The notes under the pieces: model-generated
Databases searched by the model: none
What the model was told of the DNA's origin: nothing
What the model saw: the letters and a program-made list of their open reading frames with translations, nothing else
Shown: piece after piece, positions 9,365 to 58,929 of the stretch
How the letters are laid out: each line of letters starts with the position of its first letter
Position numbering within the stretch: the stretch's first letter is position 1
NCBI GenBank assembly: GCA_036272195.1
Contig: DATAZE010000058.1
Span: forward strand, 16,326-80,325
Source: Verrucomicrobiia bacterium
Lineage (GTDB): Bacteria; Verrucomicrobiota; Verrucomicrobiia; Limisphaerales; DASXHY01
Length of the DNA stretch: 64,000 nucleotides
Reading direction: 5' to 3'
Position numbers and translations under genes: made by a program

Positions 9365-9431
9365 TACGGTAATAAATTTCGCGCCCCGGTTTTTCTCTTG
9401 TCTCGCACTCCTTTTGTTTCACAATTCAAAC

Positions 9432-11057
9432 GTGAAGCAACGCGCTGGCATTTTCTTGTCCCTTCTCGTCGCGAGCTTTTCGGCCTTTGGCCAGATGACT
9501 TCCAACCAGGTGGCCACTGTCATGGCCCAGGCTCTCACGCGCGCGAATGATTTCCTGGTTTCAGGCGCCACTTCCAATGGCGTCGTGGCCGTGGTCGACC
9601 GCGAAGGTTTTGTGCTCGGTGTTTGGAGCCTGGCACCAAGTCCGTCCGCGTTGGACGTCATTGACGCCATCACCAAGGCTGGCACGGCGGCATTCCTCAG
9701 CAGCGATCAACAGGCGCTGACCTCGCGCACCGCCGGGTTCATCGTCCAACAACATTTTCCGCCCGGAATAAAAAATCGCGAACCCGGCCCGCTGGTCGGT
9801 GTGAATTTTTCGAATCTGTCCTTTTCGGACGTGAATCATTTCAAGGACCCGCGCACCTATAATCCACTCGCATTTGGCGGTGGAGGCACAAATGGCGCGC
9901 CCATTACACCGCTCGGATTAGCGGCACTTTCCGGTCTCGCCGGTTCGCCGGGCGGCGTGCCGTTGTATGATGCCAGCGGCCATCTCCTCGGCAGCGTCGG
10001 CGCGGCAATTTCCGGCCACGCTCCGATTCCTGAACTCTACGACATCCAACCAACCGCCAAACAACGGACGGACATCGACGAGGACGTCGCGCTCGCCGGT
10101 CAACTCGGCTTCGCGCCGAACAAAAAATTCTTTGGCTCGCAGGTGTTCATTGCCGGCATCCGCGTTCCTTACGTGAACAGTAAAACCAAGGTTGAATCGC
10201 CGCTGCCCTTGGGTACCGTTGGCGCACCTGTTCCGCCGTACGACATCACGAATTCGCCGCCGGTCAATTATCCTGCGCTCACTCTCGGCGGGGTGGCCGG
10301 TGAAATGCGCGCGCCCATTATTGACGACCCGGCGGGTGGATTGATTGCCGGCCAGGCTCGCCTCACTGCCGTCGAAGTCACGAACATCCTCACGCTCTCT
10401 GCCCAGCGCGCGGCAATTACTCGCGCCGGCATCCGTCTCCCGCGCGGGCAGGCCGCTCAGGTTTTCATTACGGTGGTCAATAATCCCAATTCACCCGGCG
10501 TTGCGCCAACAGTGCTCGGCACTTTTCGCACTGGCGAAGCAACCATGTTCAGTTGGGACGTGGCCATCCAGAAAGCGCGCACGGCGCTTTACTTTTCCAG
10601 CCCGCTCGCGACCGGCCTTTTGCCCGCTGAATTGCAAAACAAAGCACTCTCGACGCGCGCGATTGGTTTTCTTGCGGAAAGCATGTATCCGCCGGGCATT
10701 CAGAAAAAGCCGCCCGGTCCGTTCCTGGGTTTGCAGGAAAATTTCTCCCTCCTGCCCATTGGTGTGACGAACGTTTTGAATGGAGTTTTTTTTACCGGCG
10801 CCAATCCACCACTCACGGCGCCCGATCCGAATCTGCCGAACGGCATCACGATTTTCCCCGGCGGTTTTCCATTGTATCGCAACGGGGTATTGATCGGAGC
10901 TATTGGCGTCAGTGGCGACGGCGTGGATCAGGACGATCTTATTGCCGCCTCGGGCACGGTGAATTTTCTGGCTCCCACCGCGATTCGTTCCGATCAAATT
11001 ATTTTTCGTCGCACGCGATTGCCCTATGCGAAGTTTCCAAGGAATCCTTCCCTGTAG
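9432..11057 (+). CDS. Exported protein with two GlcG/HbpS-like (DUF336) haem-binding-type domains
   Basis: Signal peptide MKQRAGIFLSLLVASFSAFGQ from a GTG start at 9432 (the ORF track starts at TTG 9414). DUF336-like blocks are present (VVAVVDREGFVLGVW, GAIGVSGDGVDQDDLIA). Confidence 0.6.
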   Translation: MKQRAGIFLSLLVASFSAFGQMTSNQVATVMAQALTRANDFLVSGATSNGVVAVVDREGFVLGVWSLAPSPSALDVIDAITKAGTAAFLSSDQQALTSRTAGFIVQQHFPPGIKNREPGPLVGVNFSNLSFSDVNHFKDPRTYNPLAFGGGGTNGAPITPLGLAALSGLAGSPGGVPLYDASGHLLGSVGAAISGHAPIPELYDIQPTAKQRTDIDEDVALAGQLGFAPNKKFFGSQVFIAGIRVPYVNSKTKVESPLPLGTVGAPVPPYDITNSPPVNYPALTLGGVAGEMRAPIIDDPAGGLIAGQARLTAVEVTNILTLSAQRAAITRAGIRLPRGQAAQVFITVVNNPNSPGVAPTVLGTFRTGEATMFSWDVAIQKARTALYFSSPLATGLLPAELQNKALSTRAIGFLAESMYPPGIQKKPPGPFLGLQENFSLLPIGVTNVLNGVFFTGANPPLTAPDPNLPNGITIFPGGFPLYRNGVLIGAIGVSGDGVDQDDLIAASGTVNFLAPTAIRSDQIIFRRTRLPYAKFPRNPSL

Positions 11058-12403: not shown

Positions 12404-14089
12404 CTATTTTGCCGACGCCATTTCCTTTTTCGCAGAATGAAACGTATGACACGTCGAACAACTGCTCGCCACGCCGCCTTTCGGGCTGTGGCACTCCACG
12501 CAACTTGCCCGGTTCGGCAATAAGATATCCGCTGTGTCGCGACTGTGCGCGGCATCGTGGCATTGCGCGCACGCGACTTTGAAATGTTTGGTGTGATCGA
12601 ACCGCCCGCGAATCAGCCAGCGATCGGGAATGAAAGGCCGGTTCACTGCGGGCGCGCCATCATCTGATTCGGCGACTTGATGGCAATAGGCGCAGCCCGG
12701 AAAGCGCGCGGCTCCCATCGCATCCGTTCCCGCGGCTTGCGCGACCGGGCCGGTGCGAGCATCACTGAAGAAAATGCGCCGCTCCAATTCCTCGCCCGAG
12801 CCGTAGCGCCCGCGGATTTGCGCCATCTGCGTCTGCACGAAATTTTGCAGCGCTGCAGGCGCGATTCCTTTTTGCTTCGCGCCGAAATCGGCATATTGCT
12901 CCGGCAAGCTGCGCAAGAACGCGCGCACGTGCTCCGCGCTGCCATGCGGCAGGCGCAATTGCGGGTTGTTCACGTCAAATTGCAACGAGTGGCACGTCCG
13001 ACAATTCTCCTCGTAAGAAATTTTCAAATAATAGACGCCCGCCGCATCCGGCTTATGGCAATCCGCGCAATCCAGCTTGTGGCCGTTCAACGGCGGGATG
13101 TTTGCCGAGGTCAGATGGAGCGCGTGATTAAATTTCAGCGTGTCCGGATCCCTCAATTTTTCCGCCAGCACCTGGAATTCAGGATGGTCCGCCGCAAAAC
13201 TGTGAATGAGCCCGGTATAACCTGCTTTTGGCCGCGGTGCTTTGAACAAAATCCGTCCCTGCGCCGCGCGAAAATCGAAATCCTCCGCTGGCAATTTTCT
13301 TCCGATCTCCACTGAAGCCCGCATCACCTCTGCGTTCGCGTGGCAGGAAAGACAATTTGCATCGGTCGGTTTCGGCATGAGCCCCGAGCCTTGATGCTCC
13401 CGATGACACGCCGAGCACGAATGCGCGCGCGCGACATTCGGCTCATGAAAGGAATGCGCCGCGTGGCAATGCTCGCAATTCTGGTCAATCGCGTTCATTC
13501 CCGGCGGCTCGATGGCAGCCAGCGCGCGCACTTGAAAAGGTCCCGGCGTGGCATTGAACGCCGCTTTCATCAAGCCATGCGGCCCAGCGTGCGCGGTGCC
13601 GTGGCACGCAACACACGTTTCTTCGTCGCTTTCGCGTGCTCCGGCGATTTTAGCGAATGCGGCCGTGGAATGTTGCGACGAAAGTTTTCCCGGATTGATA
13701 AATTTCGAGCGAAGCGGCCCGCACAAACCGATCAAAAGAATTCCCGCCGTGAACGCCGTCACGCATATTGCCAGCAATTTCCGCTTCGCACGCAGACTGC
13801 GCACCGGCACACATTTTGTGATTGGCCGGCAGCACGTCCCATCGGGCATCGGCCCATTCCGGCATGGACCGCCATATTCCACCGGGCGCGTGCATTTGTA
13901 GCGCCCCTTGCTCTCGCCAGGATTTGTTTCGAGCGCGGGCTGGCATTCGTAAGTGGCGCGACAATGGCCTTTGCCATCCGGCCCGATGCGGCAGGGCTTG
14001 CCTTCCGCCGCGTGCCCGCAAATCCAATTTTGATTGGGCCGCTCGTACTGATGCTTGTCGAAATCCGGCGAGGGCAATTGTTCCTTCAT
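12404..14089 (-). CDS. Membrane-anchored decahaem c-type cytochrome with an N-terminal Cys-rich cytoplasmic module
   Basis: Ten CXXCH motifs (CVACH, CEHCH, CSACH, CLSCH, CADCH, CRTCH, CAYCH, CAQCH, CVECH, CSTCH). One TM helix (LLAICVTAFTAGILLIGLCG) is preceded by RAKRK. The start MKEQ forms an ATGA overlap with the upstream gene. Confidence 0.85.
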   Translation of the reverse strand: MKEQLPSPDFDKHQYERPNQNWICGHAAEGKPCRIGPDGKGHCRATYECQPALETNPGESKGRYKCTRPVEYGGPCRNGPMPDGTCCRPITKCVPVRSLRAKRKLLAICVTAFTAGILLIGLCGPLRSKFINPGKLSSQHSTAAFAKIAGARESDEETCVACHGTAHAGPHGLMKAAFNATPGPFQVRALAAIEPPGMNAIDQNCEHCHAAHSFHEPNVARAHSCSACHREHQGSGLMPKPTDANCLSCHANAEVMRASVEIGRKLPAEDFDFRAAQGRILFKAPRPKAGYTGLIHSFAADHPEFQVLAEKLRDPDTLKFNHALHLTSANIPPLNGHKLDCADCHKPDAAGVYYLKISYEENCRTCHSLQFDVNNPQLRLPHGSAEHVRAFLRSLPEQYADFGAKQKGIAPAALQNFVQTQMAQIRGRYGSGEELERRIFFSDARTGPVAQAAGTDAMGAARFPGCAYCHQVAESDDGAPAVNRPFIPDRWLIRGRFDHTKHFKVACAQCHDAAHSRDTADILLPNRASCVECHSPKGGVASSCSTCHTFHSAKKEMASAK

Positions 14090-14910
14090 CGCGCGCCTCC
14101 CGAAAAAGCAAACACCAGCACAATGTGCGCGAGCGTCCAGAGCAGCAGGCTGTAGGTCAGCGGAATGTGGACGAAGAGCCAAAGCTTGAGCACCAGTTGC
14201 AGCGAATAATGATAATCCAGTCCGTCCTTTTGCCGGACGAGTGTGGCGATGTCGTCCATCGTCGCGCGCTCGGAGTCGTTGAGATAACGATTGAGCTCGG
14301 TGATCTTATTCAGCACCAGGTTCAACGGCGTGCGGACTTCAAACAAATGCGGCACCACATTTCGCGTCCCGTCGAAAAAGCCCTTCAACTCGCGCGCATA
14401 AAAATCAGCGATGGTCGAAGATTTCATTTCCTCGACGGATTTTAACGCCAGCGCTTCGGCGCGGTCCTGCAATTGGCGGCGAATTCCCGGAATGCGCTCG
14501 AACAAAACCTCGCCACCGCGCGTCGTGAGGCGCTTGGGAATCGTGCGCGAAACGAACAAGCCAAAGAATCCGCTGAGCATCACCAATATATATAGCCACG
14601 CGAGCGTGCCCTCGAACCATCCCGTGGGCATTTTGTAGCTGATGTGCACCAGGAACAGCACCGCGGTCAGCAGGCCCGCATAAATGTGAAATTGCAGCCA
14701 CGCCTCCGACGAGAGCAGCGGCAAAAAGGAAATCTTCTTGCGCGCATTGTAAAAAGTAAGGGCGAGCATGACCCCGAACAAAGCCCAGCCGCTGAGATAA
14801 GCGAACCGCGAGACCACACCCGCATATTTTTCGTGCGCCCAAACCGCCAGCACCGAACTGATCAAAAAAAGAATCAGTCCGGCTGAGCGCTGTTTGGAAA
14901 AGACGTTCAT
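14086..14910 (-). CDS. Polytopic membrane protein, putative dihaem b-type cytochrome
   Basis: Several hydrophobic helices. There are two His pairs each spaced H-x13-H (QFHIYAGLLTAVLFLVH and FVHIPLTYSLLLWTLAH). ATG 14910 forms an ATGA overlap with the upstream stop (an alternative GTG start is 14922). Confidence 0.6.
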   Translation of the reverse strand: MNVFSKQRSAGLILFLISSVLAVWAHEKYAGVVSRFAYLSGWALFGVMLALTFYNARKKISFLPLLSSEAWLQFHIYAGLLTAVLFLVHISYKMPTGWFEGTLAWLYILVMLSGFFGLFVSRTIPKRLTTRGGEVLFERIPGIRRQLQDRAEALALKSVEEMKSSTIADFYARELKGFFDGTRNVVPHLFEVRTPLNLVLNKITELNRYLNDSERATMDDIATLVRQKDGLDYHYSLQLVLKLWLFVHIPLTYSLLLWTLAHIVLVFAFSGGAR

Positions 14911-16634
14911 TTCCTTAGCCACTTGGCAAACGCATCCAGGTCATTCATGTTGATTCGCACCAGCGCGCCGTGCGGACAGGCGCGCTGACAGGAGGGACCG
15001 GTGATTTGCTCCACGCACAAATCGCATTTCGTCGCCTTCAAAATCGGTTTCATTTCCTTGTCCACCAGAAATTCCCCTTCCTCATCGCGAGTTTCGACCA
15101 TGCGAATCGCGTCGTAAGGACAATTATTGAAACACGATTTGCAGCCGATGCACGTCGCGGGATTGATCACGACCTGACCGCCAAACGCGTCCCGATGAAT
15201 CGCGCCCGTCGGGCAGCCAATCATGCAAACCGGATCCACGCAATGCATGCACGCATTCGCCACCATCAGTCGCCCGTTTACCGGGCCATTCCGCAGAAAA
15301 CGCGGGTTGTTATCATGCGCCGTTGCGCACGCGCGCACGCAATCGTCGCAGCGCGTGCAACGATCCATGTCAATCAACATGGTCGCCGTGCCGTTGAACA
15401 GGCGGTTTTCCGTCAGGAACTCCAGCATGTCCGCGCCAATTTTTGCGCTCGCATCCATGGCTGGCGGCGGCGCGGCTTCTTCCTCCGCGATGGGCGTCAT
15501 TGGCGGCGGCAATTCGTCCTTCGCAATCGCTGGCAGCACCACCGATTCCATAACCGCCGTCGGCACGACTATCACGTGCGTGTAGCCGATGACACGCAAG
15601 GTGTATTGCAACGGCACGGCCGCCTGCGGGTTGCGCCAGTTGTGCGCGATTTCCTGCAAGCCGTAAATTTGCCCCGCGCCGAGATAATTGAGCGTGCGAT
15701 GGCCATTGCCAAATTTCTGGCTCACGCGCGCGAAGCCGGCCTTGATCAGAATCACCCCGTTCGGGTAATCGCCTTCCTCCGCGATGATCGGCTCCTGCTT
15801 GCGCGGGCCGCTCGCGACGGTTTGCGCGAGCCGCTTGTAATCGCCGGACCAATCGTAATCGCCAAACGTGCCAAATTCTGTTTTGGCCATGACCTGCTTC
15901 AACGCGTCGGCGGAAAGATTTTTGAAAATCGGAATTTCGCGGAGCGCAATTTCCAGCGCCCGCGCCCGGTAAATCTCGTCAATGTGCCGGCGCAGCGCGT
16001 CATCACACTTCATCAAATCGCGCAAACCCTGCCAGCGAATCTCCAGCAGCTCCGCCTGCTCGCTCTCCGCAAAAATGGAGGCCGTGCGCGGCATGCGGCT
16101 GAGCGCGGCGATCTCGCCGAAAAATTCGCCCGGCTCCAGCGTGGCCGTGCGGTGCTCGTCCAGGACCCGCGGCACGTCTTGAAGAAAAATTTTTACTTCG
16201 TCGCCCGCTCGCCGCTCGGACACGCGGCTGTCCTGCTTTAATTGGGACGGGCCGATGCTCTCCGGCTCTTTGGTCTGGCTCCACAATTGCGCCATCACGC
16301 GAAAGAGACTTTTGCGCTTGGAAACGCGCCGACCGAGGACCGACGGCGGCAATTCCGGCCCGAGCACCACGCGCACATTGCCCGACATCACAAGAAACGC
16401 CGACGTGCCGTAATCGCCTTCACGCACGATGATTTCGCCGCGCTTAAATGTTTTAATGCGCGTATCGTGCTTGAGAACGTCCCGCAGGGACGCGCGCTTG
16501 GGGAAATTATCCGGATTCATCCGCGAGAACGGCGCCACCGCCAGCAACCGCTCAACGCTGGCGTCCGTCATTTCCGGATCGAACGCGGCATCCCAGCGTT
16601 GCGGACGATCGAAAGTGAAGGGTGCGGAGGGCAT
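14907..16634 (-). CDS. Cyclic-nucleotide-binding (x2) protein fused to a four-cluster 4Fe-4S ferredoxin domain
   Basis: Two cNMP-binding-like regions (FKRGEIIVREGDYG...FFGEIAALSRMPRTASI, then a second IPIFKNL...). Four Cys clusters are present (CTRCDDCVRAC, CMHCVDPVCMIGCP, CIGCKSCFNNCP, CDLCVEQITGPSCQRACP). No signal or Tat motif. Confidence 0.8.
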   Translation of the reverse strand: MPSAPFTFDRPQRWDAAFDPEMTDASVERLLAVAPFSRMNPDNFPKRASLRDVLKHDTRIKTFKRGEIIVREGDYGTSAFLVMSGNVRVVLGPELPPSVLGRRVSKRKSLFRVMAQLWSQTKEPESIGPSQLKQDSRVSERRAGDEVKIFLQDVPRVLDEHRTATLEPGEFFGEIAALSRMPRTASIFAESEQAELLEIRWQGLRDLMKCDDALRRHIDEIYRARALEIALREIPIFKNLSADALKQVMAKTEFGTFGDYDWSGDYKRLAQTVASGPRKQEPIIAEEGDYPNGVILIKAGFARVSQKFGNGHRTLNYLGAGQIYGLQEIAHNWRNPQAAVPLQYTLRVIGYTHVIVVPTAVMESVVLPAIAKDELPPPMTPIAEEEAAPPPAMDASAKIGADMLEFLTENRLFNGTATMLIDMDRCTRCDDCVRACATAHDNNPRFLRNGPVNGRLMVANACMHCVDPVCMIGCPTGAIHRDAFGGQVVINPATCIGCKSCFNNCPYDAIRMVETRDEEGEFLVDKEMKPILKATKCDLCVEQITGPSCQRACPHGALVRINMNDLDAFAKWLRK

Positions 16635-16639
16635 TTGAA

Positions 16640-17224
16640 TCAGTCTTTAATCTTAAACTCCACATATCCGTCATCAGGAACGTCGCGAATCTGGCGCGCA
16701 AGGTCAGCATGAAAAAGAATTACCTCGTCTGCTCGAACCGGTTTCAACGATGCAGTCGCGCCTGATTGTTGAAAGACAAAAGGCGGATAAGCGAGAAGCA
16801 GTTCTCCAGGCTGCAATGGGTGAGTTAATCCGACGTTTAAAAAATGTTCGACGTCCGCACTCAACCCGCAAAAAAATTCCTCAACAGTCTCAGTTAGCAA
16901 TTCAACTTCTCCGGTTTCAGCAAAAAGCCTTAGAACCACATTATCTCGAATTAGGAACTGGTCGCCAAACTGGTCCTGCGCAAAAGGAATATCCGCAGGT
17001 CCAATGCCTTCGTAGAGCGTGCAAAATGCATGCTGCCCTCGCCACGCAGCACGAAGCGAATGCCATTCCGGCGACAAGCTTGCGCCGCGCACATGCACCG
17101 CTCCTTCGTGGAGAATAAAACCGTTTGTATCAGCAAGAATGCGGCTCAGGGCAGCGGGGAGTTCGCGCAGAATTTCGACATCATCTATGCTATCGCCTCG
17201 CCATGTAATACTGGAGAGATTCAT
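16640..17224 (-). CDS. SMI1/KNR4 (SUKH-1)-like protein
   Basis: 194 aa. The ELPAALSRILADTNGFILHEGAVHVRG pattern is typical of SMI1/KNR4 domains. GC is visibly lower than in the neighbours (hand count 25/60 for 16861-16920). Confidence 0.5.
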   Translation of the reverse strand: MNLSSITWRGDSIDDVEILRELPAALSRILADTNGFILHEGAVHVRGASLSPEWHSLRAAWRGQHAFCTLYEGIGPADIPFAQDQFGDQFLIRDNVVLRLFAETGEVELLTETVEEFFCGLSADVEHFLNVGLTHPLQPGELLLAYPPFVFQQSGATASLKPVRADEVILFHADLARQIRDVPDDGYVEFKIKD

Positions 17225-17230: not shown

Positions 17231-18601
17231 TTATGCATCCAGCACCAAATTCGACTTCGGTTTGCAAATACACGTCAGGCACGAACCTGTCTCGGCGCTC
17301 GCGCCTTGCGACGCCAGATATTCCACGTCGCCGGATTTGATGGCCACCAGGCAGGTGCCGCAATTTCCCGCGCGGCAACCGGCATCAATCCTGACTCCAC
17401 GCGCTTCGGCAAAGTCGAGCAGCGAACCCATCGCCGGGTCCCAATGATGCGTTTTGTTCGATTTGCCGAACGTCACCGTGATCTTCGAGAGCATCATCGT
17501 GTCGCTCGCCGATGGTGGCGCGGCTTTTTTCACCGACGCCGGGCCGAACGCTTCGAAATGCACATTTGCATCCGGCACGCCCCATTCCGTGAGTCCGTCC
17601 GTGATGCTCTTCATGAAAGCGCCCGGGCCGCACAGGAAATAATCGTAATTGTTCGAGGGCAGCAATTGTTTGAACAACTCCACCGTCACGCGGCCTTCGT
17701 GCTGGTAATCTTTGCCCTTGGCATCCTCTTTGGCCGGTTTGCTGTAGCAGACGTGCAGGCGCACGTTTTCATTTCCGGCGGCGATTTTTTCGAGATGCTC
17801 CTTGAGGATATGTTCCTTGCGATTGCGCGCGCCGAAGAAAAACCACACCTCGCGCTTTTGCCCGCTCTCCACAATCGCGTTCAGCATGCTCACCATCGGC
17901 GTGATGCCCACGCCGCCTGAAATCAGCACCACCGGCTTTTCCTCGGACATCTCCAGAAAGAAATGGCCGCCCGGCGCTTTCACATCGAGGATGTCGCCCA
18001 CTTTGATGGTGTCGCAGAAATACGACGAGGCAATCCCGCATTTGGCGCCCTCACAATCCGGCGGCGGCAGCGCCTTTTTGATCGTGACGCGGTAACAATC
18101 GGGCCGATGCGAATCCGAGAGCGAATAACAGCGGATGACGGGCTTGCCCTGGCCGGGCAGGTTCAGTTGAAAGGTAATATATTGGCCGGGTTTAAACTGC
18201 GGGAGCGGCCGCCCATCGTGCGGAGCGAGATAAAACGAATGCACGTCCTCGCATTCGCATACTTTTTTAAGGACCTGAAATTTTCGGTAACCGTTCCAGA
18301 CGAGGTTGATTTGTTCGACCTCTTTGGTCCGGGCTTTGGCCGTCTGGATTTCGATTTTTAACCGCTGGCGCGCCAGTGATTGTTGCTCGCGCTCGAATGA
18401 CAGTCGCCGCAAAGTCCCGTAACAAAGCGAGGCGGCGTAAAGGGTCAAAAATCCGAGCAAGAGATAACCGAAGAGGAGACTGATATTTCCCCCAAATGCA
18501 GATTGCATCTGTTGTATAAGGGATTGCATTTCTGGTGTGCAGAATATAACAAGGCGCTGTGCCCGGCAAACATTTAACTTGGTTCTCGCGGCATTCAACA
18601 A
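17231..18601 (-). CDS. Membrane-anchored FNR-like oxidoreductase (FAD + NAD(P)H domains) with a C-terminal plant-type 2Fe-2S ferredoxin
   Basis: It has an N-terminal TM helix, the RCYSLSD (RxYS) FAD motif, GGVGITPM NAD motif and CRAGNCGTC...CLTC 2Fe-2S motif. The true start may be MQSLIQ at 18529. Confidence 0.8.
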   Translation of the reverse strand: MLNAARTKLNVCRAQRLVIFCTPEMQSLIQQMQSAFGGNISLLFGYLLLGFLTLYAASLCYGTLRRLSFEREQQSLARQRLKIEIQTAKARTKEVEQINLVWNGYRKFQVLKKVCECEDVHSFYLAPHDGRPLPQFKPGQYITFQLNLPGQGKPVIRCYSLSDSHRPDCYRVTIKKALPPPDCEGAKCGIASSYFCDTIKVGDILDVKAPGGHFFLEMSEEKPVVLISGGVGITPMVSMLNAIVESGQKREVWFFFGARNRKEHILKEHLEKIAAGNENVRLHVCYSKPAKEDAKGKDYQHEGRVTVELFKQLLPSNNYDYFLCGPGAFMKSITDGLTEWGVPDANVHFEAFGPASVKKAAPPSASDTMMLSKITVTFGKSNKTHHWDPAMGSLLDFAEARGVRIDAGCRAGNCGTCLVAIKSGDVEYLASQGASAETGSCLTCICKPKSNLVLDA

Positions 18602-18695
18602 AAGAAAAGTGGCGGAGATCCGTCGCCATCCAAAACCTTGCGGATATCTTTGTGCGGCCGACCGCGCGCCAGCGGTTGCTCTGCTGGTCTTGCAG

Positions 18696-18882
18696 CCCGT
18701 CAGGGCGAAAGAAAATAGCCCACCGCTTCAGTGGTGGGGCGTTGCGCGCGAACGTTCAAAGTCCCGGAGGGACGGCAGAACCTCATGGAAGGAATTTCTG
18801 CCGTCCCTGCGGGACTTGGCAAAGCATGGACGTTCATCCCAGCGATGAATCACTGGGCTATTTTCTTTCGTCCTGGCGGACT
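18696..18882. repeat. REPIN/MITE-like nested palindromic element (transposase-less copy of the RAYT element at 22281-22911)
   Basis: Outer inverted arms run (CCCGTCAGGGCGAAAGAAAATAGCCCA ... TGGGCTATTTTCTTTCGTCCTGGCGGA). Inner arms are GTCCCGGAGGGACGGCAGAA (18761-18780) and TTCTGCCGTCCCTGCGGGAC (18796-18815), separated by 15 nt. Confidence 0.75.
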
Positions 18883-20031
18883 TGGCTTTTGGGCCTGCGC
18901 TCGCCCATTGCGGGTTTCGTTCTGATAACTTTATTCGTCATTTCCCCGCCGCGGGTTTTTGCTGATGAAACAACCTCTCCAGTTGTCGCGCCTAAATTTC
19001 TCGGTTCACAAACCTGCAGCTCGAGCAGTTGCCACGGCGGCGCAGGTGAAAAAAGCAATCAATACACGATCTGGTCCACGCACGATTTTCACCACGCGAG
19101 GCCTTATGCGACGCTCGAAACCGCACGATCCGAGCGGTTGGCTGAAGTCTTGAAACTCGGCAATCCCACACAAAGCGCGCGCTGCACTGTTTGTCATGCG
19201 CCTTTTGCCACTGTTCCCGCGGATCGCCTCGGCCACGATGCGCAAATCAGCGAAGGCATCTCGTGCGAAACCTGCCACGGCCCCGCCGAAAACTGGCTCC
19301 GTTCCCACACCCGGCACGATTACACGCACGCCGACCGCGGTGCCGCCGGAATGCGCGACCTGAAAAATCTCTACGTCCGCGCAAACACATGCGTCGCCTG
19401 CCATCAGAACATCGATCCCGAAATTCGCGCCGCCGGCCATCCGGAATTGATTTTCGAATTGGACGGGCAATCGGTGACGATGCCGAGGCACTGGCGCGAG
19501 GAGCGAACGCCGGCTGATCGGTGGTTTGTTGGGCAGGCAGTCGCGCTTCGCGAAATGAGCGCGCAATTACAAAGTTTTCCCAGCCTGGAGTTATCGAATC
19601 GCTGGGCCGGTCTTTTATGGGTGCTTCAACGGGCGGGCAAACCTGAAATTCTCCAAACGAATGACGAAGACATTGCGCGGGTGCAAAAACGTTTCGACGG
19701 TTTTGCGCGGGAAATCGCAATGATCCCAAAAGAAGAACCTTCCGCAAACGGCCTGAAACAAACGGTCCAACAGCTCTCCGCGAGCAGCACAGCTTTTGAA
19801 GATAAAATGATTCCCGTCCCACTCCAGGCACGCCGCGCCGAACGCCTCACACTCGCATTAGACCGTCTGGTTATAATGCTTCCCGGCGTAACCACCAATT
19901 CCGCCGTGAACCAATCCCTGAACAAGCTTTTTGCCGACGCCCAATCGCTGCCGGATTTTGACCCGAACCAGTTCGCGAAGGACCTGAACACATTCCATTC
20001 CAGTGTCGCCGGCTTTCTGGAAACAAAATAA
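18826..20031 (+). CDS. Exported tetrahaem c-type cytochrome (cytochrome c554-like N-terminus)
   Basis: Three CXXCH motifs (CTVCH, CETCH, CVACH) plus one CX4CH (CSSSSCH). The signal peptide ends in VFA/DE. ATG 18826 lies inside the REPIN; an alternative TTG start is about 18886. Confidence 0.75.
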   Translation: MDVHPSDESLGYFLSSWRTWLLGLRSPIAGFVLITLFVISPPRVFADETTSPVVAPKFLGSQTCSSSSCHGGAGEKSNQYTIWSTHDFHHARPYATLETARSERLAEVLKLGNPTQSARCTVCHAPFATVPADRLGHDAQISEGISCETCHGPAENWLRSHTRHDYTHADRGAAGMRDLKNLYVRANTCVACHQNIDPEIRAAGHPELIFELDGQSVTMPRHWREERTPADRWFVGQAVALREMSAQLQSFPSLELSNRWAGLLWVLQRAGKPEILQTNDEDIARVQKRFDGFAREIAMIPKEEPSANGLKQTVQQLSASSTAFEDKMIPVPLQARRAERLTLALDRLVIMLPGVTTNSAVNQSLNKLFADAQSLPDFDPNQFAKDLNTFHSSVAGFLETK

Positions 20032-22222
20032 GCGCTGCTTGGCGCTGCCCGTTTTTTGCCTGAGCGCCACGCTCGCGGCGGCGCAAACGAACTCCGCGCC
20101 CAACACCAACGCCCTCGCGCCGCACCAATTCATCGACACCAATTCACCGCCGCAATCGCCGGTAAAATTCAACCCGGACTTCGGCGTCCCGCCCTCGCGC
20201 TACCATCCGAGTCCAGCGCCCAATCCATCGATCAGCTCGCGCTGGGTGACAAATCTTCCGCCCGAACCAGTCGCACCGCCGGTTTTCAATCCCGACCCCG
20301 GCGCGATGTTGAAATCACAAACAACCAACACGCCGTTCTTTACCAACACATTTTCACCACCACCCGCTTATTCCGGCGAAGCGATACCCCCGGGGTTCAC
20401 GTTGCCGCGCCCGAACGTGCGCAGCGAACAACTCGAACTCACGAACCAGCCCGCGGGCAATTACGGCGCGGGCCCGCTGCCGCCCGGCCTCGAATTGCCC
20501 CGCACCAACACGCGCGGCAATCTTTACATCAAGGAAAAATGGGATACCCCGAAATACGCGCCGCTTTATGATTATACGCTCCCGCCATTCGCCGAACCCG
20601 AAACGAACCGGTGGCGCATCGGTTTTGTGCCGTGGCGCCGTTACACCAGCGGCGACATCGAGCAGCCCTATGAATCACCCAAGCCGATGCTCTGGCGGCC
20701 CTACGCGCAAAGCCTGCTCAAAGGCGACGCGCCCATTCTCGGACAGGATGTTTTTCTGGACCTGACCGCCGGCTCGGAAACCACTTTTGAATTGCGCCGC
20801 GTGCCGACGCCGAGTGGCGTCAGTTCATCGCACCCGAATAACGCGGAATTTTTTGGCAAAAGCGAGCAGATGTTCGTGCAAAATAATTTTTCATTCACCG
20901 TCGACCTCTTCCAAGGCGAAACCGTCTTCCAGCCGGTGCATTGGGCCTTGCGGCTGGAGCCGGTCTTCAACGTCAATTACACTGACACACGCGAGAACAA
21001 CGTCATCAGCCCGAATCCCCAGCGCGGCACGGATCGTCTCGATAGTTTCGTCGCGCTTCAGCAGGCGTTCATTGAGCTTCATCTCGGCGATCTTTCGGAG
21101 AATTATGATTTCATGGCCACGCGAATTGGCAACCAGCCCTTCAACAGCGATTTTCGCGGGTTCATTTTCAACGACGTCAATCTCGCTGCGCGTCTGTTCG
21201 GCAATTACGACAACAATCGCTGGCAATACAACGTCATCGTCTTCGACATGGACGAGAAGGACACGAATTCCGAGCTGAACAAATTCGCGCGGCGCGGCCA
21301 GGACGTTTTCATCGCGAATTTATTCCGCCAGGATTTCCTGTGGCACGGCTATACGGCGCAATTGAGTTTTCACGCGAATTTCGACCACGGCGGCACGCAC
21401 TACGACGAAAACGGGAACCTCACCCGCCCAGCGCCCCTCGGCTCGGTGGTGCCGCACGATGTGAACGCATTTTATTTTGGCTGGGCGGGGGACGGGCACA
21501 TTGGCCGGTTGAATCTCAGTCACGCATTTTATGAGGTGGTTGGGCACGACAGTTTCAACGGCCTCGCCGGCCGCCCGGTGGACATCAACGCTCAAATGGC
21601 CGCGCTGGAACTCTCTTATGATCGCGATTGGATCCGCTACAAGGCGTCCGTGTTCTATGCCTCCGGCGATCACAAAGCCACCGACGGCACGGCGAACGGG
21701 TTTGATTCCATTGTCGACAACCCGAATTTCACCGGCGGCCCGTTCAGTTGGTATGTGCACCAGGGATTCAACCTCGCCGGCACCGCAGTCGGCTTGAAAC
21801 AGCGCGACAGCCTCATCCCTGATTTGCGCACGAGCAAAACGGAAGGACAGGCGAACTTCGTTAACCCGGGCGTATTGCTCCTCGGCCTGGGAACGGAAAT
21901 GGATTTGACCCCAAGGCTGCGGAGTTTCATCAACGCGAATTACGTTCGCTTCATGGAAACCGATGCCATCAAAACCGCGCTCCTCACCGACAAAGTGGAC
22001 AATGAACTCGGCTACGATTTAAGCCTCGGATTTCAATATCGTCCGCTGTTGACGGACAACGTCATCATTTCGACCGGCTTTGGCACATTGATTCCCGGCA
22101 CCGGCTACCGCGACATTTACAAAACCAGCAGCGATCCTGTTTCCGGCTACGGCTCGCACGGCCGCGGCCGGGTGGATGATTTTCTTTACAGCGTGGTGTT
22201 GTCCGTCACACTTACTTATTAA
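20003..22222 (+). CDS. Putative outer-membrane beta-barrel (porin-like) protein with a Pro-rich N-terminal region
   Basis: Signal peptide LALPVFCLSATLAAAQ (an alternative TTG start is 20039). It is rich in alternating aromatic/polar strands and ends in the terminal ...VVLSVTLTY aromatic residue typical of OMPs. Confidence 0.55.
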   Translation: MSPAFWKQNKRCLALPVFCLSATLAAAQTNSAPNTNALAPHQFIDTNSPPQSPVKFNPDFGVPPSRYHPSPAPNPSISSRWVTNLPPEPVAPPVFNPDPGAMLKSQTTNTPFFTNTFSPPPAYSGEAIPPGFTLPRPNVRSEQLELTNQPAGNYGAGPLPPGLELPRTNTRGNLYIKEKWDTPKYAPLYDYTLPPFAEPETNRWRIGFVPWRRYTSGDIEQPYESPKPMLWRPYAQSLLKGDAPILGQDVFLDLTAGSETTFELRRVPTPSGVSSSHPNNAEFFGKSEQMFVQNNFSFTVDLFQGETVFQPVHWALRLEPVFNVNYTDTRENNVISPNPQRGTDRLDSFVALQQAFIELHLGDLSENYDFMATRIGNQPFNSDFRGFIFNDVNLAARLFGNYDNNRWQYNVIVFDMDEKDTNSELNKFARRGQDVFIANLFRQDFLWHGYTAQLSFHANFDHGGTHYDENGNLTRPAPLGSVVPHDVNAFYFGWAGDGHIGRLNLSHAFYEVVGHDSFNGLAGRPVDINAQMAALELSYDRDWIRYKASVFYASGDHKATDGTANGFDSIVDNPNFTGGPFSWYVHQGFNLAGTAVGLKQRDSLIPDLRTSKTEGQANFVNPGVLLLGLGTEMDLTPRLRSFINANYVRFMETDAIKTALLTDKVDNELGYDLSLGFQYRPLLTDNVIISTGFGTLIPGTGYRDIYKTSSDPVSGYGSHGRGRVDDFLYSVVLSVTLTY

Positions 22223-22280
22223 AGCCATGACGAAAATCCTTCGGTCAATAATCGGCACTCAGGGTAAACAATCTTTCGTT

Positions 22281-22911
22281 AGTCCGATAGGACGTCAGAT
22301 AATAGCCCACCGCTTTAGCGGTGGGTTTAGCCCAAACTTCCCAAGTCCCGCAGGGACGGCAGAACCTTAAAACATGCACGCGTTCACGAGCAGCCTCTAT
22401 CATTGTGTGTGGAGCACGAAAGACAGGCGGCCCGTCCTGACACCCGAAATTCAAGCTCGGCTTTGGCCATATCTAGGTGGAACTGCCCGGGCAAACAAAA
22501 CCTGGGCATTGGCCGTTGGTGGTGTCGCTGACCACGTCCATATCTTGCTTTCGCTGCCTTCAACACTCACAATTTCAAAAGCCATCCAATTGTTGAAAGG
22601 CAATTCGTCAAAGTGGTTGCATGAGGAGTTCCGCGATCTTCGGTCCTTTAATTGGCAGGAAGGATACGGAGCTTTCACGATTGGAATGTCGAGTGTAGCC
22701 GATACCAAAAACTATATTGCCACACAGAACGAACATCATCAGAAGAAAACGTTCCAGGAAAAGTTTCGTTCCTTTCTGGATAAGCACGGTTTGTCGTATG
22801 ATGCAGCGACCTTGTGGGACTAATTTCTGCCGTCCCTGCGGGACTCGACGACGCTCCGGCGTTCATCCCAGCGATGAATCGCTGGGCTATTTTCTTTCGT
22901 CCTTACGGACT
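22281..22911 (+). mobile_element. IS200/IS605-like RAYT element with nested terminal hairpins
   Basis: The outer inverted arms are AGTCCGATAGGACGTCAGATAATAGCCCA and TGGGCTATTTTCTTTCGTCCTTACGGACT. The inner arms are GTCCCGCAGGGACGGCAGAA (22345-22364) and TTCTGCCGTCCCTGCGGGAC (22825-22844), hugging the transposase ORF. Confidence 0.8.
22374..22823 (+). CDS. REP-associated tyrosine transposase (IS200-like Y1/HUH transposase)
   Basis: 149 aa. It has the YHCVWSTKDRRP start, the HUH motif (HVHIL) and the WQEGYGAF tyrosine motif. Confidence 0.85.
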   Translation: MHAFTSSLYHCVWSTKDRRPVLTPEIQARLWPYLGGTARANKTWALAVGGVADHVHILLSLPSTLTISKAIQLLKGNSSKWLHEEFRDLRSFNWQEGYGAFTIGMSSVADTKNYIATQNEHHQKKTFQEKFRSFLDKHGLSYDAATLWD

Positions 22912-25900
22912 GGGCTGGTTGCTTTCGCGATATTTATATTCCTGTCGTTTATTCTTTCGTCGACACCGCTTTTTGCCGATGACGCTGGCTTCGGCCCATC
23001 GATTTCCGTTCCGCGTGATTTGCCTGAAAACGATCCGCATGGTTTGCCCGCGCGAAATTGGATCGATCAAACTCGCGAAGAGGCCACGCACAAAAGCCTG
23101 GGCTGCCTCGAATGCCATAAAGGCATTGAAAACACATCCATGCACGTCAGCCCAAACGTCGTGCTCGGCTGCATCGATTGCCATGGCGGCAATCCGACAC
23201 CCGGCCTCACTCAATACAAGGCGCATGTTCAACCGTCGCACCCGGAATTCTGGCCCACCTCCGCCAATCCGGCTGACGCCGACGTGCTGCTCAATCAGGA
23301 ATCGCCGGAATTCATCCGGTTTGTGAACCCCGGCGATTTGCGCGTGGCGCAACAGACCTGCGGCGTCTGTCATCAGCAAGCGGTCGGGCACGTGTGGCTC
23401 AGCATGATGAACCACGGCGCCACGCTCTGGGGCGCGGCGCTATATAATAATGGCGCGTTTCCGTTGAAGAATTATCGCTACGGCCAGGCCTATGGGCCGA
23501 ATGGCGAGCCGTTGAAGCTGATAAATCCTCACACGCCCACGCCCGAAGAAACGCGATTGCACGGAATTTTGCCGTTCATCGAACCGCCGCCGCGTTTTCC
23601 CATCGCGCAACCGAGCAATATCCTTCGCATCTTCGAAAAGGGCGGCGAGAAGCAATTGCAACTCGGCATTCCCAATTCCGAAGAGGAGCCGGGGCATCCT
23701 GCGCGCCGTTTGTCCGAGCGCGGATTCGGCACGTTGAACCGGATTGATCCCGTTTTTCTCAACATCCAAAAAATGCGCCTGCATGATCCGCTGCTCGGCT
23801 TCATGGGCTCGAACAATCATCCCGGCGATTACCGGAGCAGCGGCTGCTCGGCCTGCCACGTGATTTACGCGAACGATCGCTCGCCCTCGCAGTCCGGCTG
23901 GTATTCCAAGTACGGCAATCAGGGCCTCAGTTTCAGCGGCGATCAATCCGGCCTGCGCCACGATGAACGCGGCCACCCGATTCACCACGAATTGACGCGC
24001 TCGATTCCCAGCAGCCAATGCATGGTCTGCCACATGCACCAGGGCAATTTATTCGTGAACCCGTTCCTTGGTTACACCTGGTGGGACCAGGAATCTGACG
24101 GCGAGTTCATGTATCCGAACCCGGACAATCCGATTGCCAACGACCCGCATTTCCGCGGCAGCCGCTCGCTCGCGCAAATGACGCAGCAGCACAATCCCAC
24201 GGACGAAGAATTTGTTAATTCCATTCGCAACAATCCCGAAGCCGCCGCGGCACGCGGGTTGTGGGGCAATTTGGATTTTCTGGAAAAAACCGCTGAGTTG
24301 AATCCGAAACTCAAGAACACGCAATTCGCCGATTATCACGGCCACGGCTGGATTTTCCGCGCCGTATTCAAGCACGATCGCCAGGGCAACCTTCGCGATC
24401 TCGACGACAACATTATCCCGCACGATGATCCGGATAAATGGGCCAAGGCCGTGCACTTGAAGGACGCGCACCTCGCGCACGGCATGCAATGCGTGGATTG
24501 CCATTTCGAAGCCGACGCCCACGGCAACGGCAATCTCTACGGCGACCCGCGCGCCGCCACAACCATCGAGTGCATTGACTGCCACGGGACTATTTTGAAA
24601 CGCCCGAGCCTCCAAACCACAGGCAATGGCGGCCAGATTGATTTGAATCAAAGTTCAACACCTTCGGGTCCGCGCTTTATCTGGGAAGGCAAAAAACTCT
24701 TTCAACGCTCCATGATGAGCCCGGATGTGCGCTGGGAAATTCCGCAAACGATGGACACGATCGACCCGGCGTCATCCCACTACAATCCGAAATCCGCGTA
24801 CGCGAAAACGCTGCGGCGCGAGGGCAAGGAATGGGGAGATGCCCCGAATGGTGAAAAATGCTCCCGCGAACTGGCGCATGACAATTCCAACATCTCCTGC
24901 CAGGTCTGTCACAGCTCATGGGCCACGAGCTGCTTCGGCTGCCACTTGCCCATGCGCGCAAATCAACGGGCGCCGGCCAATAAGTTCGAAGGCGTCACCA
25001 CCCGCAATTTCACCACGTACAACCCGCAGGTCGTCCGCGACGACGTTTTCCAACTCGGCATTGACGCCACTTACAAGAATCACCGGCTCGCCATATTGCG
25101 GTCGTCATCCGCCGTGATCGTCGGCTCGCAGAACGCGAATCGTGAATGGGTTTATTCGCAGCAACAAACCGTGAGCGCCGAAGGCTACAGCGGCCAGGCG
25201 TTCAACCCGCATTTTCCGCACACCACGAGCGGCGTCGGCACGACCAAGACCTGCACCGATTGCCATCTTTCGAAGGAGAATGACAACAACGCGTGGATGA
25301 CTCAATTGCTCGGCTTCGGCACGGGCGCGGTGAATTTCTTCGGCCGCTACGCGTACGTCGGCGAGGGCAAAGGCGGGTTTGATGCCGTCGCGTGGACCGA
25401 GCAGGAGGAACCGCAAGCCGCCTTCGGCAGTCATTTGCAGAAGATTGCTTACCCCGCTGATTACGCACAACACGAGACCAACCACGGCGTTCTCACCGAA
25501 GCCTATCACCATCACGGGAAGGAAATTCTCGATCTGACATTGCGCGGCGAATATCTCTACACGGCCAACGGTGAAGACGGCTTTGAAGTTTTCGACGTGG
25601 CGAACATCGATCAAAAAGGTTTCTCCGAACGCATTGTGAGCGCGCCCGTTTCGCCGCTTGGCCAGCGGACTTACGTGCGGACGAAATACGCCACTTCCGT
25701 CACGCTGCCGAGCACGCTGGGCATCGATCCGTTGCGGCAGCATTACCCGGAAATTTCCAAGGCTGAAATTAGTGGCACGGGCGTCCCGCCCGTGCGAAGC
25801 GCTCAAGAAACACACGGGCGAGACGCCCGTGCCACTACGAGCGACATTTACACGGGCAACGAAGAACAGCCCATCAGCCTCATCTACACCTGGGCGTTTA

Positions 25901-26886
25901 TCACCGACCGCGAAGAGGGCCTGGTCATGTGCAGCGTCGGGACGCTGGTGGACGGCCAGCCTGACAACAACTTTTTGGATAAGGAAAAAATCATTCGTTA
26001 CAACCCGGACGGCAAACTCACCGGCGCCATGCATTCTTTCATGGCCGGAACGAATTTATTCGTGGTCGGCAAAAACGGCCTCTTCGTGCTCGGTCTGAGC
26101 TACACGGAATTGAAGGCGCCGACGATGGTTGCCGAATTGAGCGATCACGAATTCAAAAACCCCCGCGCGGTGGGCGTGCAATTCCGTTACGCTTTCGTGA
26201 CTGACGAAGAAGGCTTCAAAGTCGTGGACATCACCGATCCGGCGCATCCGAAATTGATTCCGGGCGCCACGGTGCCGCTCAAACACGCCCAGCGCTTTTA
26301 CCTCGCGCGCACTTACGCTTACGTGGCAGATGGCGAGGACGGCCTCGCATTCATCGACATCACCAATCCAGAGAAACCGAAACTGGAACGCCTCTACACC
26401 GCCGATGGCGCGCTCAACGACGTTCGTGCCGTGCAAGTCGGCTCCATCAGCGCATCGGAATTTGCGCTTGTCGCCGATGGAAAGAACGGCTTGCGGGTCA
26501 TTCAACTCATCTCGCCAGAAAACGTCCCCGGTCACATGGGCTTCAGTCCCGCGCCGAATCCGAAATTGATTGCGACTTATCCCACGAGCGGCCCGGCGCT
26601 CGCGGTTTCGCGCGGTCTTGACCGCGACCGCGTCGTCGATGAAACTGGCAATCAAACCGTGGTTTTTGGCCGGCGCGGCTCGCGTCCGTTCCACCTTGAT
26701 GAAATGGAAAAATTTTATCGGCATGAAGATGGCAGTCTGTATCAGGTGGAAGACGTCGTCGCCCGCGCGGGCAAACTCCAAGCTCGCGATGGAACCGAAC
26801 TTCCCGCGCCTGCCCGATTCGCAGCGCCACCTGAACCCACTCTTTCGTCACCTCCACAAAACCGCCTCGTTCGCCGGGGCAATTGA
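22798..26886 (+). CDS. Giant decahaem c-type cytochrome fused to a C-terminal LVIVD-repeat beta-propeller
   Basis: Ten CXXCH motifs (CLECH, CIDCH, CGVCH, CSACH, CMVCH, CVDCH, CIDCH, CQVCH, CFGCH, CTDCH). LVIVD-type repeats are present (YLYTANGEDGFEVFDVANI, YAFVTDEEGFKVVDITDP, YAYVADGEDGLAFIDITNP, FALVADGKNGLRVIQL). The signal-like segment ends in LFA/DD. The start is uncertain (ATG 22798/22801 inside the RAYT 3' end, or a non-canonical start later). Confidence 0.8.
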   Translation: MMQRPCGTNFCRPCGTRRRSGVHPSDESLGYFLSSLRTGLVAFAIFIFLSFILSSTPLFADDAGFGPSISVPRDLPENDPHGLPARNWIDQTREEATHKSLGCLECHKGIENTSMHVSPNVVLGCIDCHGGNPTPGLTQYKAHVQPSHPEFWPTSANPADADVLLNQESPEFIRFVNPGDLRVAQQTCGVCHQQAVGHVWLSMMNHGATLWGAALYNNGAFPLKNYRYGQAYGPNGEPLKLINPHTPTPEETRLHGILPFIEPPPRFPIAQPSNILRIFEKGGEKQLQLGIPNSEEEPGHPARRLSERGFGTLNRIDPVFLNIQKMRLHDPLLGFMGSNNHPGDYRSSGCSACHVIYANDRSPSQSGWYSKYGNQGLSFSGDQSGLRHDERGHPIHHELTRSIPSSQCMVCHMHQGNLFVNPFLGYTWWDQESDGEFMYPNPDNPIANDPHFRGSRSLAQMTQQHNPTDEEFVNSIRNNPEAAAARGLWGNLDFLEKTAELNPKLKNTQFADYHGHGWIFRAVFKHDRQGNLRDLDDNIIPHDDPDKWAKAVHLKDAHLAHGMQCVDCHFEADAHGNGNLYGDPRAATTIECIDCHGTILKRPSLQTTGNGGQIDLNQSSTPSGPRFIWEGKKLFQRSMMSPDVRWEIPQTMDTIDPASSHYNPKSAYAKTLRREGKEWGDAPNGEKCSRELAHDNSNISCQVCHSSWATSCFGCHLPMRANQRAPANKFEGVTTRNFTTYNPQVVRDDVFQLGIDATYKNHRLAILRSSSAVIVGSQNANREWVYSQQQTVSAEGYSGQAFNPHFPHTTSGVGTTKTCTDCHLSKENDNNAWMTQLLGFGTGAVNFFGRYAYVGEGKGGFDAVAWTEQEEPQAAFGSHLQKIAYPADYAQHETNHGVLTEAYHHHGKEILDLTLRGEYLYTANGEDGFEVFDVANIDQKGFSERIVSAPVSPLGQRTYVRTKYATSVTLPSTLGIDPLRQHYPEISKAEISGTGVPPVRSAQETHGRDARATTSDIYTGNEEQPISLIYTWAFITDREEGLVMCSVGTLVDGQPDNNFLDKEKIIRYNPDGKLTGAMHSFMAGTNLFVVGKNGLFVLGLSYTELKAPTMVAELSDHEFKNPRAVGVQFRYAFVTDEEGFKVVDITDPAHPKLIPGATVPLKHAQRFYLARTYAYVADGEDGLAFIDITNPEKPKLERLYTADGALNDVRAVQVGSISASEFALVADGKNGLRVIQLISPENVPGHMGFSPAPNPKLIATYPTSGPALAVSRGLDRDRVVDETGNQTVVFGRRGSRPFHLDEMEKFYRHEDGSLYQVEDVVARAGKLQARDGTELPAPARFAAPPEPTLSSPPQNRLVRRGN

Positions 26887-36708: not shown

Positions 36709-36727
36709 AAAGGGGGCTAACTAAGAT

Positions 36728-36761
36728 AGCGTTGCCGGAGGTAACACCGGCAACGCTTTTT
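36728..36761 (+). terminator. Rho-independent terminator-like hairpin
   Basis: AGCGTTGCCGG-AGGTAACA-CCGGCAACGCT followed by TTTTT, 20 nt after the stop at 36708. Confidence 0.6.
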
Positions 36762-36803
36762 ACCATCGGGCGGTCCGCCGGTTTCAAAATTCAGCTGTCG
36801 TGC

Positions 36804-58838: not shown

Positions 58839-58929
58839 GGAGCGTGATTATTTTCTTACTTGTTGACGCTTCTCGAATTCTCCGGAGTTGCAGGAGAAAC
58901 AATTAATGTCTCACCCATTCCACCTGAAG

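Follow-up and report, generated by a model that had tools for sequence, protein, structure and literature searches.

Does a barrel gene that lies between two multihaem cytochrome genes encode the outer-membrane part of a porin-cytochrome conduit, as the gene order suggests, or does it belong to a system of another kind? The question is raised by a stretch of 64,000 nucleotides (nt) from a Verrucomicrobiia bacterium (contig DATAZE010000058.1 of assembly GCA_036272195.1, positions 16,326–80,325 of the forward strand), hereafter the window. In it, genes for a small tetrahaem cytochrome (A), an outer-membrane barrel protein (B), and a large decahaem cytochrome (C) follow one another on the forward strand. 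An initial annotation had read the three as an operon whose order, small cytochrome, barrel, large cytochrome, was that expected of a porin-cytochrome complex. Comparison with related loci leads us to favour, tentatively, another answer. The window would encode a conserved, undescribed, phylum-wide verrucomicrobial envelope electron-transfer system of two modules, the outer part of which is not a sheath of the Mtr or porin-cytochrome (Pcc) type, with B as a channel and anchor and C in the periplasm.

A scan of one genome per species for relatives of B returned at least 565 stretches. The best 80 of these (L001 and following) are nearly all labelled Verrucomicrobiota and belong to Pedosphaerales/Limisphaerales, Opitutae, and Chthoniobacterales/Udaeobacter; the genomes with relatives of B include Opitutus sp. 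GAS368 and Udaeobacter. Synteny was read in 83 related loci, in most of which the window's own genes were the ones looked for, and Pfam-labelled neighbours were read in L081–L083. The search with B found more than 3000 homologues and that with C at least 8000, and every listed member that bears a source name is called a "hypothetical protein." Of the 60 loci with enough downstream DNA, 58 have C no more than 1.5 kb beyond B, and they span Pedosphaerales/Limisphaerales, Opitutae, and Chthoniobacterales/Udaeobacter. The exceptions are L041, where 4.2 kb and three unrelated genes, one of them a dihaem open reading frame (ORF), separate B from C, and L010 (OY969763.1), which has B and the genes H, M, and T described below and no C within 10 kb downstream. 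Upstream, 62 loci extend far enough for the immediate neighbour of B to be read: in 40 it is a divergent HbpS-like gene (H), in 6 the decahaem cytochrome gene M, and in 5 it is A. Of the 38 loci whose flanks reach 8 kb or more in both directions from B, 37 contain H. In the window, H (9414..11057, forward strand) encodes a secreted protein with two tandem HbpS/GlcG-like halves. Pfam HbpS-like matches residues 367–514 with an expectation value (E) of 4e-13, and the N-terminal half is conserved and has similar motifs, from which we infer a second half of the same type. Judged from gene order, the conserved unit is B–C, usually with a divergent H, and A belongs to a second module. The proposed porin-cytochrome pairing thus holds for the barrel and large multihaem genes, which are tightly coupled, and fails for the A-B-C trio, which is not a conserved unit.

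The second module is less constant in its place. Any of A, T (a polytopic membrane protein gene), or M occurs in 20 of the 38 long-flank loci, in several orientations. Inner-membrane and periplasmic cytochromes are thus linked to B–C, and a role in envelope electron transfer is plausible. A is usually the divergent partner of four genes, F-N-T-M, or of T-M alone in Chthoniobacterales. In L082 and L083, A on the reverse strand is followed by F, N, T, M, B, and C, and the Opitutae loci L046 and L058 have the same order with H ahead of A. The window reads H, then M, T, N, U, and F on the reverse strand, then A, B, and C, which is the Opitutae-type order with the block from A to M inverted. The order A-B-C is also seen in the closest relatives, L001–L004 and L081. 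Because A adjoins B in 5 of 62 loci and the block order is inverted, the succession of a small cytochrome and a barrel is best regarded as a recent rearrangement. A would have come to lie beside B by inversion of the A-to-M block, and a mobile element would later have split B from C. The order small cytochrome, barrel, large cytochrome is therefore real in the window and derived. M adjoins B on its upstream side in L082, L083, and the Opitutae loci, and in several lineages it overlaps B, giving the order M, B, C, which is more Pcc-like.

The product of C (22915..26886, forward strand) is a secreted decahaem cytochrome fused to an LVIVD beta-propeller, the haem domain reaching to about ORF residue 920. 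The fusion of ten haems to LVIVD repeats had been recognised from the start and is confirmed. There are exactly 10 CXXCH motifs, as in all 58 full-length orthologues, and LVIVD (PF08309) scores 59 bits against a cut-off of 20.2. The fusion is kept in relatives with 43–54% identity. An AlphaFold2 (AF2) model of ORF residues 88–1287, made from an alignment of 121 sequences, is confident in the propeller (residues 960–1150 at a predicted local distance difference test score, pLDDT, of about 90), and Foldseek matched it to generic propellers of 7–8 blades. The haem domain is 64–91% identical across loci where B is 50–89% identical. C and 16 displayed orthologues carry short signal peptides of the signal peptidase I type without a lipobox, and no recognised C-terminal sorting domain was found in C. 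The single sequence of C had no match in the PDB. Its profile gave only marginal matches to octahaem nitrite reductase (E 0.012), based on the haem motifs and taken as not significant. Membership of the NCBIfam family ExtM was likewise set aside, the match (E 6.6e-14, 51 bits against a cut-off of 800) being taken as a shared di-haem module.

The product of B (20003..22222, forward strand; 739 residues) has the signal peptide (…ATLAAA, cut before QT), the Pro-rich N-terminal region, and the C-terminal …VTLTY that were first described for it. The Pro-rich, disordered extension of about 215 residues carries duplicated, nearly invariant FNPDxG and LxLPRxNxR motifs. The AF2 model is disordered to about residue 245 and then forms an 18-strand, AlgE-like barrel (residues 250–739), mostly at pLDDT 70–90. 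For this model Foldseek ranks AlgE entries of the PDB in the first 15 places (E about 1e-14, target template-modelling score 0.57–0.64). OccK/OpdO, ChiP, and MOMP come next, interspersed with general porins of 16 strands, and MtrB does not appear in the first 50. The barrel domain has 490 residues, 142 of them in four long loops. Conservation in the putative extracellular loops equals that in the strands (0.84 in L7, which has 70 residues). This fits loops folded into or over the lumen, and like those of the AlgE, OccK, ChiP, and MOMP channels they could narrow or gate the pore. Residues that face the lumen, roughly counted from strand alternation and not from model coordinates, comprise 10 K/R against 20 D/E, suggesting a net acidic lumen. 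The initial annotation had named too small a barrel, or likeness to an alginate-export or substrate-specific porin, as grounds against a porin-cytochrome conduit; the modelled barrel has 18 strands and resembles AlgE, OccK, and ChiP, which speaks against such a conduit. By sequence B stands apart from known families. Neither the single sequence nor the profile matched the PDB, no NCBIfam family (hence not TIGR03016) and no Pfam family above threshold was matched, and no haem motif was found in B. Pfam Alginate_exp (PF13372) scores 19.2 bits (E 5.6e-4), below its gathering score of 25.2, and matches 4 of 54 members of the B family at E of 0.01 or less. B further differs from AlgE in its Pro-rich N-terminal extension, in a lumen estimated to be acidic rather than basic, and in the lack of an alginate gene context. 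The called neighbours in L081–L083 and the scanned ORFs of the window comprise redox proteins, the HbpS-like protein, and unrelated genes, with no polysaccharide biosynthesis or export gene among them.

The product of A (18889..20031, forward strand) is a secreted, c554-like tetrahaem cytochrome with a C-terminal non-haem domain of about 200 residues. Its haem motifs are CSSSSCH (nt 19015), CTVCH, CETCH, and CVACH, and all 8 Cys residues past the signal peptide fall within them. Pfam Cytochrome_C554 (PF13435) scores 39 bits against a cut-off of 20.8. In an alignment with Nitrosomonas europaea cytochrome c554 (1BVB) the four haem sites match, and CS--SCH stands opposite CSSSSCH, a two-residue insertion. 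The CX4CH first site that had been noted in the window is present in 26 of 26 extracted orthologues and is thus a fixed feature of the family, not a lesion. It had been read as either a rare CX4CH site or a single-Cys site; it is conserved but of a known motif type, with a weak match to the NCBIfam "CxxxxCH/CxxCH domain" TIGR01904. CX4CH sites also occur in Desulfovibrio cytochrome c3. Compared with Nitrosomonas c554 (1BVB/1FT5), A has CX4CH in place of CXXCH at the first site and the extra C-terminal domain, falls far below the cut-off of the NCBIfam equivalog NF043010 for Nitrosomonas CycA (21.8 bits against 400), and has no hydroxylamine oxidoreductase gene in its context. The match of A to an MtrC/MtrF domain is below threshold. 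Small tetrahaem proteins are known as periplasmic shuttles.

The remaining genes of the second module lie upstream of A on the reverse strand. M (12404..14089) encodes a decahaem c-type cytochrome whose single transmembrane helix follows an N-terminal domain rich in Cys. It has 10 CXXCH motifs, as do 25 of 27 orthologues, and matches Pfam Cytochrome_C7, c3_2, and Paired_CXXCH. The ORF extends over 12404–14182, and the likely start, ATG 14089, overlaps the stop of T. A conserved N-terminal part of about 130 residues with about 12 Cys precedes the transmembrane helix and should for that reason be cytoplasmic; no family match was found for this segment, which could bind a metal or an Fe-S cluster. 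T (14086..14922) encodes a polytopic membrane protein of 278 residues with two invariant His pairs, the members of each 14 residues apart, in hydrophobic segments. DUF4405 is weakly matched by 7 of 10 orthologues (best E 1.5e-4), and the T profile has no relative in the PDB. T is probably a dihaem b-type cytochrome. N (14907..16634) encodes a cytoplasmic protein with cyclic-nucleotide-binding domains (Pfam cNMP_binding, E 7e-24) and a 4Fe-4S dicluster domain (Fer4_7, Fer4_11), and is co-linear with F, T, and M in Pedosphaerales and Opitutae loci. F (17231..18601) encodes a membrane-anchored FAD/NAD(P)H oxidoreductase with a C-terminal 2Fe-2S ferredoxin domain (Pfam NAD_binding_1, FAD_binding_6, Fer2). 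In NCBIfam it matches the reductase part of flavohaemoprotein (E 6e-83), and the N-terminal hydrophobic helix was read from the sequence. U (16640..17224), an ORF of 194 codons between N and F, has no Pfam or NCBIfam match and no tblastn match in any of the 83 related loci, and is not conserved.

The A-B-C genes of the window had been described as an uninterrupted operon, and this does not hold. An IS200/RAYT-like element (22281..22916, forward strand) lies between B and C, with a left arm at 22281–22367, a transposase gene at 22374–22823, and a right arm at 22809–22916. The transposase has 149 residues (Y1_Tnp, E 2e-28), and its gene is flanked by inverted, hairpin-forming arms, as is characteristic of IS200/RAYT Y1 elements. 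None of the closest relatives L001, L003, and L081 carries the insertion, and a 70%-identical copy of 636 nt occupies the same spacer in the distant locus L011 (about 4445–5074), which suggests a recurrent insertion hot spot. In L001, L002, L003, and L081 another repeat-like sequence, which translates as …KLQ(I/A)PSSKLQR…, lies upstream of C in the B–C spacer. A palindromic mini-element (18694..18887, strand not assigned) with both RAYT/IS200-like arms and without a transposase gene lies in the divergent spacer between F and A and runs into the annotated 5′ end of A. It contains a 186-nt palindrome (18697–18882; DNA folding free energy −72.9 kcal/mol, z −11.6), comprises the repeat families D3, D6, D7, I1, I2, and I4, gave 3–4 matches in motif searches against 0 expected, and also occurs in L001 and L081. 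The arrangement resembles REP/RAYT and IS200/IS605 elements in having a Y1 gene between inverted hairpin arms and a gene-less palindromic doublet elsewhere in the window. It differs from REP/RAYT, of which many copies are spread over a genome, in that one full and one gene-less copy lie within 64 kb; the element may be a domesticated RAYT or a mobile IS200-like element. Two further inverted-repeat pairs in the window (58446–58604 and 58928–59142; arms of 29–35 nt, 86% complementary and 100–145 nt apart) differ in sequence type from the RAYT arms. In a scan for promoters and terminators the counts were at or under chance, and only the repeat-arm hairpins stood out.

These repeats bear on where A and C begin. 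The right arm is open in frame in both genes and yields a common pseudo-peptide, FCRPCGT…VHPSDESLGYFLSS, so the N-termini first reported for A and C are repeat DNA. In each case the right arm abuts the region that encodes the signal peptide. The start first assigned to A, ATG 18826, lies inside the 186-nt palindrome, and TTG 18889 yields a cleaner signal peptide. The length of 1389 residues given for C is an over-extension, of which at least the first 64 residues are the 3′ end of the transposase gene and the right arm. The start of C is uncertain and may be CTG 22915 or ATG 22798/22801. The latter, the only upstream ATGs, lie in the 3′ end of the transposase gene, and no ATG, GTG, or TTG is found between 22801 and 23020. 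The position of the orthologous start codon is CTG in the window (22915) and ATG in L011, right after the arm. A canonical start codon appears to have been lost from C in the window, and C may here be expressed poorly or under altered control. A terminator-like hairpin with a T-run lies at 22867–22886, just ahead of the signal-peptide codons of C. C has also gained about 23 residues (…GTGVPPVRSAQETHGRDARATT…) from a GC-rich palindrome (25770–25837; inverted repeat I6, arms of 25 nt with 96% complementarity) that interrupts a variable loop of the propeller region and keeps the reading frame. In the orthologue alignment it is present only in the window and L081.

A GFO/IDH/MocA oxidoreductase gene (26915–28012, forward strand) follows C directly, and a gene for an Fe/Mn superoxide dismutase (28098–28826, reverse strand) lies 1.2 kb downstream of C. 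Both products have signal-like N-termini and are probably exported on that account; among related loci the pair follows C only in L081. Farther on, at 35985–38804, three diverged tandem copies of a 300-nt segment (D1, D2, and D4; 60–70% identical, spaced about 1.1–1.2 kb) probably mark tandem paralogous genes.

What, then, would these proteins do together? The membrane components T and M (in some loci joined by the cytoplasmic F and N), the periplasmic A, and the outer-membrane components B and C are all encoded, which supports the general idea of electron transfer in the initial annotation. In our tentatively favoured reading, the first module is the invariant core of B, with its 18-strand AlgE-like barrel and Pro-rich periplasmic extension, and C, usually accompanied by H. 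The second, often within 10 kb and in either orientation, would supply a dihaem b-like protein (T), a membrane-anchored decahaem cytochrome (M), and a soluble CX4CH tetrahaem cytochrome (A), to which Pedosphaerales and Opitutae would add an NAD(P)H flavo-2Fe2S protein (F) and a cNMP-domain/4Fe-4S protein (N). Electrons would pass from the cytoplasm or membrane to T and M, from these to A, and from A to C. B would act as a specific channel and anchor and would form no sheath around a haem wire. C would be held on the periplasmic side near B, possibly by binding of its propeller to the duplicated short linear motifs of B, and would reduce or oxidise a solute that enters through B.

Several observations weigh against this reading. 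The model of B is of moderate confidence (mean pLDDT 60), and its strand count rests on the model and the length of the domain. The haem domain of C was modelled at pLDDT 25–60 only, which allows no inference on an MtrC-, OcwA-, or enzyme-like fold, and no catalytic site was identified. The second module is absent from the flanks in about half of the loci. LVIVD and "choice-of-anchor B"-like propellers are typical of cell-surface proteins, and C has a weak match of the latter kind (TIGR04312), which favours an exposed C. An external C could just as well dock on the conserved extracellular loops of B.

Comparison with known systems shows both likeness and difference. MtrCAB of Shewanella and the OmaB/OmbB/OmcB Pcc of Geobacter likewise couple a barrel gene to a large decahaem-class cytochrome, have inner-membrane and periplasmic multihaem partners encoded nearby, and share with some of the lineages the order multihaem cytochrome, barrel, large multihaem cytochrome. 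The barrel of MtrB has 26 strands and that of OmbB a predicted number of about 20, against 18 in the AlgE-like model of B; a barrel able to sheathe a multihaem wire would be expected to have about 20–26 strands or more. Moreover, the periplasmic cytochrome is no fixed neighbour of B, and B bears a disordered N-terminal extension. Unlike MtrC and OmcB, C is not a lipoprotein and has a C-terminal LVIVD propeller. No homology of B to MtrB or OmbB was found by Pfam, NCBIfam, or PDB sequence searches or among the top 50 folds. The Mtr/Pcc mechanism, a haem wire sheathed by a barrel and joined to a surface lipoprotein cytochrome, therefore fails on four features: strand number, a fixed periplasmic partner, the lipobox, and homology. 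On the inner-membrane side, Geobacter CbcL-type oxidoreductases combine a dihaem b domain with a multihaem c domain. T, with two His pairs in helices, and M, an anchored decahaem protein, would together give the same cofactor layout. It is here split over two proteins, M has a cytoplasmic Cys-rich domain, and some orders add an NAD(P)H-flavoprotein and an Fe-S protein.

Other porin-cytochrome clusters have already been proposed in Verrucomicrobia. He et al. (2017) have described a cluster that combines an 8-haem periplasmic cytochrome with a porin of 20 or more transmembrane strands (PMC5615132). More recently, Fiorito et al. (2026) have defined the verrucomicrobial EET3 and EET4, the latter consisting of a 286-residue, 8-haem MtrA-like protein, a TIGR03016 MtrB-like porin, and a 583-residue, 9-haem OcwA-like protein (10.64898/2026.05.27.727921). 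These clusters share with the system of the window the phylum, the habitats, the clustering of porin and multihaem genes, and some of the same genomes. In contrast to EET4, B has no NCBIfam match and is AlgE-like, and the cytochromes have 4, 10, and 10 haems, the last with a propeller. Having no NCBIfam match and a different fold class, B marks the system as distinct from EET4. The cluster of He et al. may also be a different one, its description fitting EET4 better. In the literature, no paper was found that describes a decahaem-LVIVD fusion paired with an AlgE-like barrel, or LVIVD with cytochromes matching this cluster.

Among the alternatives, the one that survives best is a trans-outer-membrane conduit of a new type, which we consider somewhat unlikely. 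C would sit on the surface, docked on the loops of B, and the 18-strand barrel would enclose something small through which electrons pass, either a stretch of A, M, or C that bears haem or, as a plug, the N-terminal extension of B. Such an arrangement would be nearer to the small-barrel Cyc2 than to MtrAB, and would serve either electron uptake or the transfer of electrons to humics or metals outside the cell. The tight coupling of the barrel and large cytochrome genes speaks for it, and the proximity of inner-membrane (T, M), periplasmic (A), and outer-membrane (B, C) tiers agrees with it. M directly upstream of and overlapping B in several lineages, the usual surface association of LVIVD propellers, the conserved extracellular loops of B, and the clusters already proposed in the phylum (PMC5615132; 10.64898/2026.05.27.727921) also count in its favour. 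The modelled barrel, however, is far smaller than the 26-strand MtrB, which lies outside the best 50 folds, and B has no haem motif. C has neither a lipobox nor a sorting signal, its conservation exceeds that of B, as is uncommon in proteins exposed on the surface, and the export of a folded haem protein of 1300 residues is left unexplained. Distinctly doubtful to us is the broader proposal that B and C form a new class of outer-membrane conduit without an Mtr-type haem-wire sheath. It would extend across Verrucomicrobiota, including abundant aerobic soil lineages, and be fed by a chain that possibly bypasses quinones, made up of an NAD(P)H flavoprotein, Fe-S, dihaem b, decahaem, and CX4CH tetrahaem components.

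It is also improbable that B, C, and H form a system for the handling of haem or iron or for oxidative stress, with a haem binder or degrader of the HbpS type, a channel for iron or haem, and C as a redox buffer or peroxidase-like scavenger. H, which Pfam labels "haem degrading," is the most constant neighbour of B–C (37 of 38 loci). The superoxide dismutase encoded 1.2 kb downstream in the window genome bears a signal peptide, carriers of the system include aerobic soil lineages such as Udaeobacter, and the acidic lumen count (10 K/R against 20 D/E) would favour cations. Yet ten haems capable of bis-His ligation and the linkage to T, M, and A point to electron transfer, the dismutase is linked only in the window and its closest relative, and HbpS-like domains are diverse and poorly defined in role.

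A three-gene A-B-C operon with A inside the lumen of B, as MtrA is in MtrB, is highly improbable. The 29-nt overlap of A and B in the window suggests translational coupling, and the closest relatives (L001–L004, L081) have the same order. Against this, A adjoins B in 5 of 62 loci and is elsewhere the divergent partner of F-N-T-M or T-M, the barrel is too small and AlgE-like, and the supposed operon is broken by a transposase gene with terminator-like hairpins. Finally, an alginate-like exopolysaccharide exporter that lies next to cytochrome genes by accident, to which AlgE as the best fold match and the weak Alginate_exp match (E 5.6e-4) might point, is rejected as next to impossible in view of the sub-threshold Pfam score shared by few family members (4 of 54), the absence of polysaccharide synthesis and export genes among the called genes of the three Pfam-labelled loci, the adjacency of B and C in 58 of 60 loci across orders, and an estimated lumen that is acidic where a polyanion channel would be expected to be basic.

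The conserved CX4CH site of A offers a clean test case for haem attachment at non-canonical motifs, in a phylum reported to be without most ccm genes (10.64898/2026.05.27.727921). If C is a periplasmic enzyme with a dedicated channel, knowledge of its substrate would reveal what a protein does that ranks among the most conserved uncharacterised ones in the phylum. If the genes encode a redox system at the envelope, they would represent a major unaccounted route of electron exchange with humics, metals, or another solute in the Verrucomicrobia of soil, peat, and freshwater, and would widen the range of architectures beyond the Mtr, Pcc, and Cyc2 types.

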